Shown: in pieces, positions 34,059 to 34,225 of the stretch
How positions within the stretch are numbered: the first letter of the stretch is position 1
How the letters are laid out: every line of letters begins with the position of its first letter
DNA from: Sphingobacteriales bacterium
Lineage (GTDB): Bacteria > Bacteroidota > Bacteroidia > UKL13-3
NCBI GenBank assembly: GCA_021299635.1
Contig: JAJTFA010000001.1
Coordinates: forward strand, 283,842 to 347,841
Reading direction: 5' to 3'
DNA length: 64,000 nucleotides
Position numbers and translations under genes: made by a program
The notes under the pieces: generated by a model
Database searches by the model: none
What the model was told of the DNA's origin: nothing
Seen by the model: the letters and a program-made list of their open reading frames with translations, nothing else

Positions 34059-34141
34059 ATTTTTTTTCTTCACTGATGACCTTCCCGATTTCATCGGGAC
34101 GCTCTAGCCATCCCGATTATTATCGGGAGAGCTAATCCCCC
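34059..34141 (-). repeat. Pseudo-tRNA unit 1 (tRNA-Ala 5'-half derivative with tcccgat..atcggga hairpins replacing D-loop and anticodon arm; no 3' acceptor strand)
   Basis: minus strand gggggattagctc[tcccgataataatcggga]tggctagagcg[tcccgatgaaatcggga]aggtcatcagtgaagaaaaaaaatg vs tRNA gggggattagctcagctggctagagcg cttgcatggcatgcaag aggtcatc. Confidence 0.85.
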
Positions 34142-34225
34142 AATTTTTTTTCTTCACTGATGACCTTCCCGATTTCATCGGGACGCTCTAGCCATCCCGA
34201 TTATGATCGGGAGAACTAATCCCCC
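34142..34225 (-). repeat. Pseudo-tRNA unit 2 (near-identical tandem copy of unit 1; D-loop hairpin tcccgatcataatcggga)
   Basis: ~95% identical to unit 1 over 83-84 bp, head-to-tail. Confidence 0.85.

Follow-up and report, generated by a model that had tools for sequence, protein, structure and literature searches.

Two short pieces of a tRNA gene stand in tandem in front of that gene, and the question raised by this locus is what they are and how they came to lie there. The locus belongs to a Sphingobacteriales bacterium (contig JAJTFA010000001.1), and the window, that is, the whole stretch of DNA analyzed, comprises 64,000 nt. The two pieces, unit 1 and unit 2, lie between tRNA-Ala(GGC) and a promoter. 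All coordinates are those of the 64-kb window; the Ala locus lies on the minus strand and is described in that reading direction, and L numbers are our labels for the loci compared. The answer that we favor, at about even strength, is that the units are non-functional scars of a tRNA-targeting homing module resembling the SegB system of phages, and that a palindrome colonized them, slippage doubled them, and their transcription yields no more than a leader. To the same degree, we take them to be non-coding remnants of the 5' two-thirds of tRNA-Ala(GGC), made when a selfish GIY-YIG module invaded the tRNA gene.

Tandem Repeats Finder delimits the repeat at 34046-34225, with a period of 84, 2.2 copies, and 96% matches. 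Unit 2 (84 bp) and unit 1 (83 bp) are ~97% identical and differ by 2 substitutions and 1 indel. In each unit, the segments GGGGGATTAG(C/T)TC, TGGCTAGAGCG, and AGGTCATC correspond to positions 1-13, 17-27, and 45-52 of the adjacent tRNA-Ala(GGC), to which they are identical and with which they share their order. Three D-loop bases are exchanged for an 18-nt hairpin, TCCCGAT(A/C)ATAATCGGGA, and the 17-nt anticodon arm is exchanged for a 17-nt hairpin, TCCCGATGAAATCGGGA. Either unit ends at its 3' terminus with AGTGAAG-A8-T(T), and the anticodon arm and the whole 3' half of the tRNA are missing. The original prediction, made from the letters of the window, had described tandem tRNA-Ala-derived units of this kind, and its anatomy was correct in every detail. 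The pattern TCCCGAT-N(3-6)-ATCGGGA has 4 matches in the 64-kb window, all within the units, where 0 are expected. Each unit folds as two stable local hairpins (z-scores of -3.8 and -2.9). Because both units recur in 9 independent assemblies of the window's species, an assembly artifact is excluded.

Several familiar identities do not fit the units. ARAGORN and the Rfam tRNA model (E<=1) called only the intact tRNA-Ala and tRNA-Asp and not the units, and with the anticodon arm and the 3' half missing, a functional tRNA is ruled out. An array of clustered regularly interspaced short palindromic repeats (CRISPR) is ruled out as well, since there are two head-to-tail copies and zero spacers, whereas an array has three or more repeats with unique spacers; both exclusions agree with what had been predicted. 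A hammerhead or other ribozyme built on CTGATGA of the plus strand was also rejected, as its core is incomplete and it has no Rfam match. An Rfam scan of 31000-37000 on both strands (E<=1) returned no family for the units or for the two-hairpin inserts described below.

The promoter had been predicted to lie upstream of unit 2 rather than next to the tRNA, and relatives that have no units bear this out: their orthologous promoter abuts the tRNA. The spacing is 12 nt in both cases, between promoter and unit 2 in the window and between promoter and tRNA in the empty-site relatives. The element upstream of unit 2 is the only promoter-like one, with none between the units and the tRNA. Because the promoter of the empty-site tRNA abuts unit 2 here and no other promoter-like element intervenes, the predicted leader of ~170 nt is soundly argued, and the comparison supports well that the units would be transcribed from the displaced tRNA promoter as a ~170-nt leader of tRNA-Ala. 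If so, tRNA-Ala apparently tolerates a 170-nt structured leader built from fragments of its own gene.

Downstream of the same tRNA-Ala lies a module formed by an open reading frame (ORF) for a GIY-YIG protein and a 3' pseudo-fragment of the tRNA (Table 1). The final codons of this 94-aa ORF lie in the tRNA 44-53 copy and in the first bases of the 85-nt insert. In the insert, the base sequences CCCCGAA..TTCGAGGG and TCCTCGAA..TTCGGGA are conserved, and the distal stems covary. tRNA-Asp also has a GIY-YIG ORF and a palindrome-bearing pseudo-fragment, with the layout GGTCGCGGGTT-[CCCCGAGTACTCGGGG]-CGTCCGCACCGC, so both tRNAs detected in the window host such a module. Past the pseudo-fragment, the tRNA trailer and terminator recur in the Asp module (32063-32482, minus) as a diverged copy with compensatory changes. 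The gene call for the Asp-linked protein, 111 aa at 32106-32441 (minus), which is also found in public records (e.g., L001), begins inside tRNA-Asp; translation most likely starts from the ATG at position 32357 or 32351. About 200 nt downstream of the Asp module, 31794-31872 (minus) matches the Rfam Flavo-1 RNA motif below threshold, with 31.4 bits where the gathering score is 42 (E ~1e-3). From SurE to AccA, the only ORFs are those of a 97-aa membrane protein and the 94-aa GIY-YIG protein. Integrase-mediated insertion into the tRNA with att duplication is therefore ruled out, as no integrase ORF lies between SurE and AccA and the units are 5' fragments.

Table 1. Features of the tRNA-Ala and tRNA-Asp loci in the window
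Feature	Position	Strand or sequence	Remarks
Bacteroidota-type promoter TTTG-N19-TATATTTG	34268-34238	minus	pattern match; orthologue directly precedes tRNA-Ala in L221, L214, L216
Unit 2	34225-34142	minus	tRNA-Ala 1-13 (one C>T), D-loop hairpin, 17-27, anticodon-arm hairpin, 45-52, AGTGAAG-A8-TT
D-loop hairpin of unit 2	34195-34212	TCCCGATCATAATCGGGA read on minus strand	palindromic
Anticodon-arm hairpin of unit 2	34167-34183	TCCCGATGAAATCGGGA	palindromic
Unit 1	34141-34059	minus	anatomy as unit 2; tRNA-derived segments 32/32 identical to tRNA
D-loop hairpin of unit 1	34111-34128	TCCCGATAATAATCGGGA	palindromic
Anticodon-arm hairpin of unit 1	34083-34099		palindromic
Intact tRNA-Ala(GGC)	34058-33984	minus	ARAGORN; Rfam tRNA model 59.7 bits
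Terminator-like hairpin AAAGGCCCATTGGGCCTTTTT	33983-33962	minus	between tRNA-Ala and ORF; duplicated after 3' pseudo-fragment in L012
94-aa GIY-YIG ORF, catalytic domain only, UPF0213-like	33956-33672	minus	Pfam PF01541 E=6e-15; PDB 1ZG2 E=7e-8
Copy of tRNA-Ala 44-53 (GAGGTCATCGG)	33695-33685	minus	sequence match
85-nt two-hairpin insert	33684-33600	minus	exactly between tRNA positions 53 and 54 of downstream pseudo-fragment
Exact copy of tRNA-Ala 54-76 (T-loop to 3' end)	33599-33579	minus	
Terminator after Ala 3' pseudo-fragment	33577-33559	minus	
tRNA-Asp(GTC), host of second module	32482-32406	minus	ARAGORN, Rfam
Second GIY-YIG ORF, 83 aa	32357-32106	minus	directly downstream of tRNA-Asp; PF01541 E=2e-15
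tRNA-Asp 3' pseudo-fragment	32104-32065	minus	T-loop exchanged for perfect 16-bp palindrome CCCCGAGTACTCGGGG at 32092-32077

The orthologous sites in relatives were traced via the neighboring 97-aa membrane protein. In the closest empty-site relatives (L221/L220/L222; 91% identity of the 97-aa protein), the Ala site shows the same promoter, a 12-nt leader, an identical tRNA-Ala, the terminator, and AccA, with no units and no GIY-YIG ORF. The Ala site is likewise empty at 77% (L214) and 63% identity (L216); tRNA-Ala is identical in the two nearest of these empty-site relatives (91% and 77%), and all three share the promoter. The sister species L012, whose GIY-YIG protein is 96% identical, carries one unit, with a 4-nt loop duplication in its D hairpin, and the entire downstream module. 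At the Asp site, the window and L012 carry the module and L214 is empty; in L221 (1880-2040), the GIY-YIG ORF has a premature stop (..PWRLN-stop), a sign of module decay at a locus whose Ala site is empty. This presence/absence polymorphism corresponds to the pattern typical of homing elements. Because the 91% relative is empty and the lineage of the window and L012 is filled, unit and GIY-YIG module were gained in one short interval, and the unit was duplicated later, in the window's lineage.

The two parts of the arrangement are not always found together. At 57% identity, L218 has a decayed unit (GGATGGATAGTTCATTTGGCTCGAGCG / TCCCGCAGGAAGCGGGA / AGGCATGGG) upstream of tRNA-Ala with no GIY-YIG ORF within 2.5 kb; tRNA-Asp is adjacent, and no GIY-YIG ORF was called within 2.5 kb of it. 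Units could thus outlive the ORF. Related Ala modules without upstream units occur in L010 and L013. A link between the units and the GIY-YIG module had been raised in the original prediction, and it is supported: the nearest empty relatives have neither, whereas the window and L012 have both. The association is not obligatory (L010 and L013 on one side; L113, L146, and L218 on the other).

A scan of one genome per species with the GIY-YIG alignment as query yielded 79 loci, 66 of them with enough flanking sequence. Most of the 79 are from Bacteroidota; the others belong to Calditrichota, Chlorobiota, Aminicenantia, and the Candidate Phyla Radiation (CPR). The GIY-YIG ORF directly adjoins a same-strand tRNA in 53 of the 66 loci, representing 12 isotypes, and a partial copy of the local tRNA brackets nearly every ORF. 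Tandem ORF copies (2-7) are found in 14 loci, such as the four downstream of tRNA-Leu in Croceivirga and the three that follow tRNA-His in a metagenome-assembled genome of Prolixibacteraceae. In Algoriphagus halophytocola (L060; CP110226, 1913056-1917274), tRNA-Asn is followed by seven copies of GIY-YIG ORF plus pseudo-tRNA-Asn at a 397-bp period, and the anticodon arm of each pseudo-tRNA-Asn is exchanged for TCCCGATTCATCGGGA. Mirror-image modules, in which a 5' pseudo-fragment and the ORF precede the intact tRNA, occur in Eudoraea, Aminicenantia, and Saprospiraceae, and in one upstream-type array (L036) the ORFs are visibly decaying. ORF-less upstream units like those of the window are found at tRNA-His, Gly, Arg, Asn, Val, Glu, Leu, and Ala.

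The breakpoints of the tRNA fragments cluster, at 53/54 in the T-loop and at 43/44. Among 68 exact 3'-end fragments, 21 start at T54 (15 loci; tRNA-Ala, His, Leu, Pro, and Gly), and a further 16 begin at positions 43-45. A hand count places the ends of ~8 of 12 ORF-less upstream units at positions 50-60. Ten 53/54 junctions were inspected, and each has two adjacent hairpins abutting T54 that end in CCCGAA..TTCGGGA or in the highly conserved TGCTGACCGAAGCGTCAGCA. A second hairpin family, TGCTGAC..GTCAGCA (often TGCTGACCGAAGCGTCAGCA), abuts T54 in pseudo-tRNA-Leu, Pro, and Gly (L024, L025, L031, L038, L042, L056, L036) and is sometimes paired with a TCCCGAC..GTCGGGA hairpin. In L020 (2270-2356), a two-hairpin insert occupies the D-loop of a tRNA-His copy. 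Because it sits between GG and TT, as the T-loop inserts at 53/54 do, a GG/TT target is hinted at. The junction between an ORF-less upstream unit and its tRNA (34059-34074 in the window; also L018, L113, L070, L085, L146, L035) is in many cases GAAG(T) with an A/T-rich stretch of 8-25 bases behind it. In the upstream-type module L066, TAGAAGT/ATG stands at the start of the ORF. The junction may mark a point of ORF loss or insertion.

The original prediction had suggested a search for further pseudo-tRNA units with the TCCCGAT-N-ATCGGGA hairpin, and these were found at other tRNAs and in relatives; the hairpin was also found as an apparently dispersed repeat in metagenomes. The stem (T/C)CCCGA..TCGGG(A/G) takes the place of the D-loop, the anticodon arm, or the T-loop in pseudo-copies of unrelated tRNAs, namely pseudo-tRNA-His, Gly, Arg, Asn, Val, Glu, Thr, and Leu from Bacteroidota, Calditrichota, Aminicenantia, and CPR. 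For 25 of 101 ORF stops, a strict CCCG hairpin is present in the interval from -60 to +200 nt, compared with 1 of 438 control windows; the first figure is an undercount, since short-looped copies such as those of the L060 array are missed. In four loci (L070, L081, L085, L035), the pseudo-copies upstream and downstream agree both in the palindrome variant and in its position. In L013, the pseudo-tRNA flanks are decaying and the palindrome is still perfect.

A metagenome scan for TCCCGAT-N4-ATCGGGA gave at least 120 loci (L091-L210) with 133 hairpins among the matches listed, to which all the proportions in this paragraph refer. The perfect 18-bp palindrome TCCCGATAGCTATCGGGA accounts for 56 of the 133, where 1 in 256 would be expected; TCCCGAGTACTCGGGA is a second perfect form, and the canonical loops AGCT and GTAC are self-complementary. 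Only 34% of the palindromes lie inside long ORFs, compared with 80% of random positions. A GIY-YIG ORF was found within 600 nt of 6 of 71 palindromes, and tRNA-like flanks at 7% of solo palindromes, compared with 3% of controls. Because it is mostly outside long ORFs and rarely near a GIY-YIG ORF or tRNA-like flanks, the palindrome is probably a dispersed mini-repeat in its own right. Dead tRNA arms beside GIY-YIG genes appear as a hot spot for it, and the GIY-YIG ORF is the only gene seen recurrently beside palindromes, in a survey with no search aimed at HUH/RAYT genes. Solo palindromes do not usually cap longer hairpins, since complementary flanks of at least 5 bp occur in 12%, compared with 3% of controls. 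The signal for a target-site duplication is weak (a 4-nt repeat in 4 of 54), with no flank consensus; T is nearly never found at -1 and A nearly never at +1. Some contigs (L113, L117, L179, L163, L161) hold 2-3 copies.

The proteins encoded by the GIY-YIG ORFs are 83-94 aa long, and the catalytic domain spans nearly the whole length, with no separate DNA-binding domain. The catalytic residues Y, YIG, R, H/N, and E are invariant in the family alignment. The closest solved structure is the uncharacterized UPF0213 protein BH0048 (PDB 1ZG2 chain A; E=6.9e-8, query residues 1-83), and NCBIfam, PHROGs, and PADLOC gave marginal homing-endonuclease-like matches only. An exhaustive protein search retrieved 3464 cluster representatives (50% identity) at E<=1e-3 and 172 at E<=1e-10, and a word-indexed protein search found 2 relatives only. 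Many family members in databases have N-terminal extensions of 25-45 aa, which are probably over-long gene calls that start inside the upstream tRNA. Viral contigs gave just 3 weak partial matches, which argues against a phage-borne module.

We propose that the small nuclease would break tRNA genes in or near the conserved T-arm, and that recombinational repair from a filled allele would bring in the ORF and restore one intact tRNA. Imprecise or staggered repair would leave 5' tRNA pieces upstream and 3' pieces downstream, and the dead loops and arms would be occupied by the 16-18 bp palindromic mini-repeat. A single unit, such as that of the sister species, could then be doubled by unequal exchange between the 13-nt GGGGGATTAGCTC repeats that lie 84 bp apart. 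The units would be carried along as the ~170-nt leader, cut off by RNase P, with no function of their own. Alternatively, they may descend from an upstream-type module that lost its ORF; the GAAG and A/T-rich junction common to ORF-less units at several tRNAs, to which TAGAAGT/ATG of one upstream-type module corresponds in position, would fit this origin, although the lead is weak. Among the origins and functions offered in the original prediction, products of repeated element insertion came nearest, because the hairpins copy a palindrome that is found in unrelated pseudo-tRNAs, in several phyla, and dispersed in metagenomes.

Several points weigh against this account. We infer transcription across the units from sequence, and cleavage by these ~90-aa proteins, which have no DNA-binding domain, by analogy. 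Self-cleavage would have to be tolerated or avoided, since the T-loop of the intact tRNA is perfect. Units without a GIY-YIG ORF nearby exist (L113, L146, L218). In nearly every pseudo-copy a hairpin is placed precisely, and its palindrome can remain perfect amid decaying flanks, as in L013; passive colonization does not easily explain so much, which suggests selection on the palindrome or a part for it in the mechanism. The model would also have to account for the precise swap of a tRNA arm for an 18-bp palindrome with undisturbed flanks.

The strongest rival is one that we hold as a tentative minority view: the hairpin-bearing pseudo-tRNA pieces, the two units among them, would be working cis-elements of the module. 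The palindrome would be bound or cut by a dimeric or structure-specific nuclease, for which it would serve as a cruciform "lightning rod", as a landing pad, or to initiate recombination, with the tRNA flanks as repair homology. The palindrome would then be the mobile cis-partner of the nuclease, in a partnership comparable to that of repetitive extragenic palindromic (REP) sequences with REP-associated tyrosine transposases (RAYT). The canonical palindromes are perfect through the loop, which points to a symmetric protein on double-stranded DNA or a cruciform rather than to an RNA hairpin, and the sense and antisense folds are symmetric. Hairpins are ~100-fold enriched beside GIY-YIG ORF stops, the stem sequence is kept across phyla although the proteins drop to ~40% identity, and the palindrome outlasts the decaying pseudo-tRNA of L013. 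The UPF0213 family consists of the catalytic domain only; Slx1, which is related to the GIY-YIG UPF0213 proteins, cuts branched and stem-loop DNA. On the other hand, when sampling starts from the hairpin, a GIY-YIG ORF is near few of the palindromes listed and tRNA-like flanks are scarce. Modules without upstream units exist (L010, L013), other modules carry different hairpins such as TGCTGAC..GTCAGCA, and the interaction of nuclease and palindrome is putative, being read from sequence.

A bolder proposal, which we consider unlikely, is that the GIY-YIG proteins and the palindromic hairpins together form a new mobile system. A DNA or RNA structure embedded in the pseudo-tRNA would replace the DNA-binding domain and steer the nuclease to tRNA genes (the T-loop at 53/54 and the anticodon-arm boundary), the palindrome would be the nuclease's miniature cis-element in the manner of REP/RAYT, and the units would be active landing pads or decoys.

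We assign a similarly low probability to an origin in which the tRNA 5' region was duplicated, by ordinary replication slippage or in tandem, and later colonized by the palindrome, with the GIY-YIG gene uninvolved. The second unit is plainly a slippage product, the palindrome appears to be distributed independently and mostly in intergenic DNA, and palindrome-bearing ORF-less units stand at tRNAs with no GIY-YIG ORF in the locus (L113, L146, L218). Nevertheless, units and module were acquired in one short interval between the 91% relative and the lineage of the window and L012, the same combination recurs at many tRNAs, palindrome variants are common to upstream and downstream pseudo-copies, and the breakpoints are non-random.

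It is very improbable that the units act as RNA, whether as a structured 5' leader that tunes the folding, RNase P processing, or stability of pre-tRNA-Ala or as a source of small regulatory RNAs: the upstream promoter makes transcription expected and each unit has its two stable hairpins, but the units are facultative, being absent from the nearest relatives with identical tRNA and promoter, vary in copy number (1 or 2), offer no acceptor/T minihelix to RNase P since the 3' half is missing, match no Rfam family, have self-complementary loops that an RNA hairpin does not need, and are related to two-hairpin inserts whose sense and antisense folds are equally good with almost no G-U pairs. Loop self-complementarity and the equal folding of both strands favor symmetry at the DNA level over an RNA function, and the facultative presence, variable copy number, missing 3' half, and strand-symmetric folding leave the RNase P decoy and the regulatory RNA of the original prediction without support.

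Under the homing model that we prefer, the units themselves are most likely inert scars, and their interest lies in the system that they reveal. If the model is true, the stray pseudo-tRNA fragments and the over-long ORF calls running into tRNAs in Bacteroidota annotations would be explained, a new miniature palindromic repeat would be identified, and the SegB-tRNA relationship would reach from phages to bacterial chromosomes.

The system can be compared with four known ones. Stand-alone GIY-YIG proteins of the UPF0213/YhbQ type are related in sequence (E=7e-8 over 83 residues), of equal size, and alike in their conserved catalytic residues. They differ in that we found no function or genomic-context rule for that family; the association with tRNAs and pseudo-tRNAs is added here. 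These proteins are very numerous (3464 clusters), with no function assigned in searchable sources, and they are now given a testable tRNA context, in which they behave like selfish modules whose precise breakpoints fall in the best-conserved part of tRNA genes. Integrative elements that target tRNAs (attL/attR) also restore an intact tRNA and leave a partial tRNA copy flanking the inserted DNA, whereas the present modules have no integrase and a cargo of only ~400 bp, their tRNA fragments include 5' pieces ahead of the tRNA and carry hairpin substitutions, and some modules form tandem arrays. REP sequences and REPIN elements, with RAYT, are very short dispersed palindromes, mostly intergenic, sometimes at the tips of pre-existing hairpins, and replace rather than add sequence (PMC3116915); the present palindrome appears to resemble them in this. 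In the present case, the linked gene encodes a GIY-YIG nuclease, and the element is only 16-18 bp and concentrated in pseudo-tRNA arms. Cyanobacterial small dispersed repeats (SDR) reportedly share the same features with it.

The closest parallel is SegB of T-even phages, in particular of phage T6. SegB has roughly 220 aa and includes a DNA-binding part. It is a free-standing GIY-YIG endonuclease encoded beside tRNA genes that cuts inside tRNA genes, and its nuclease activity together with homologous recombination produces tandem tRNA-plus-segB repeats via microhomology with the tRNA 5' end (PMC13096335). Its SITE-seq cleavage motif is RAWTSGAAC (PMC13096335). By our own reading, which that paper does not state (the term "T-loop" is absent from its main text), this motif reads on the opposite strand as GTTCSAWTY, the universal tRNA T-loop sequence. 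Such an equivalence would match the 53/54 breakpoint, the many tRNA isotypes, and the tandem arrays seen here. Both systems place a GIY-YIG gene beside tRNAs of many isotypes, and the bacterial loci show tandem ORF arrays, T-loop breakpoints, and filled/empty polymorphism. SegB is a phage protein, whereas the present proteins are chromosomal, 80-95 aa long, made of the catalytic domain only, and almost absent from viral contigs, and hairpin-substituted pseudo-tRNAs are not described for SegB. Literature searches on the GIY-YIG/tRNA/Bacteroidota arrangement and on the palindrome found no description of either, the SegB paper alone being relevant. The arrangement therefore appears to be new, combining a SegB-like homing nuclease at tRNAs with mini-palindromes of the REP/SDR kind.

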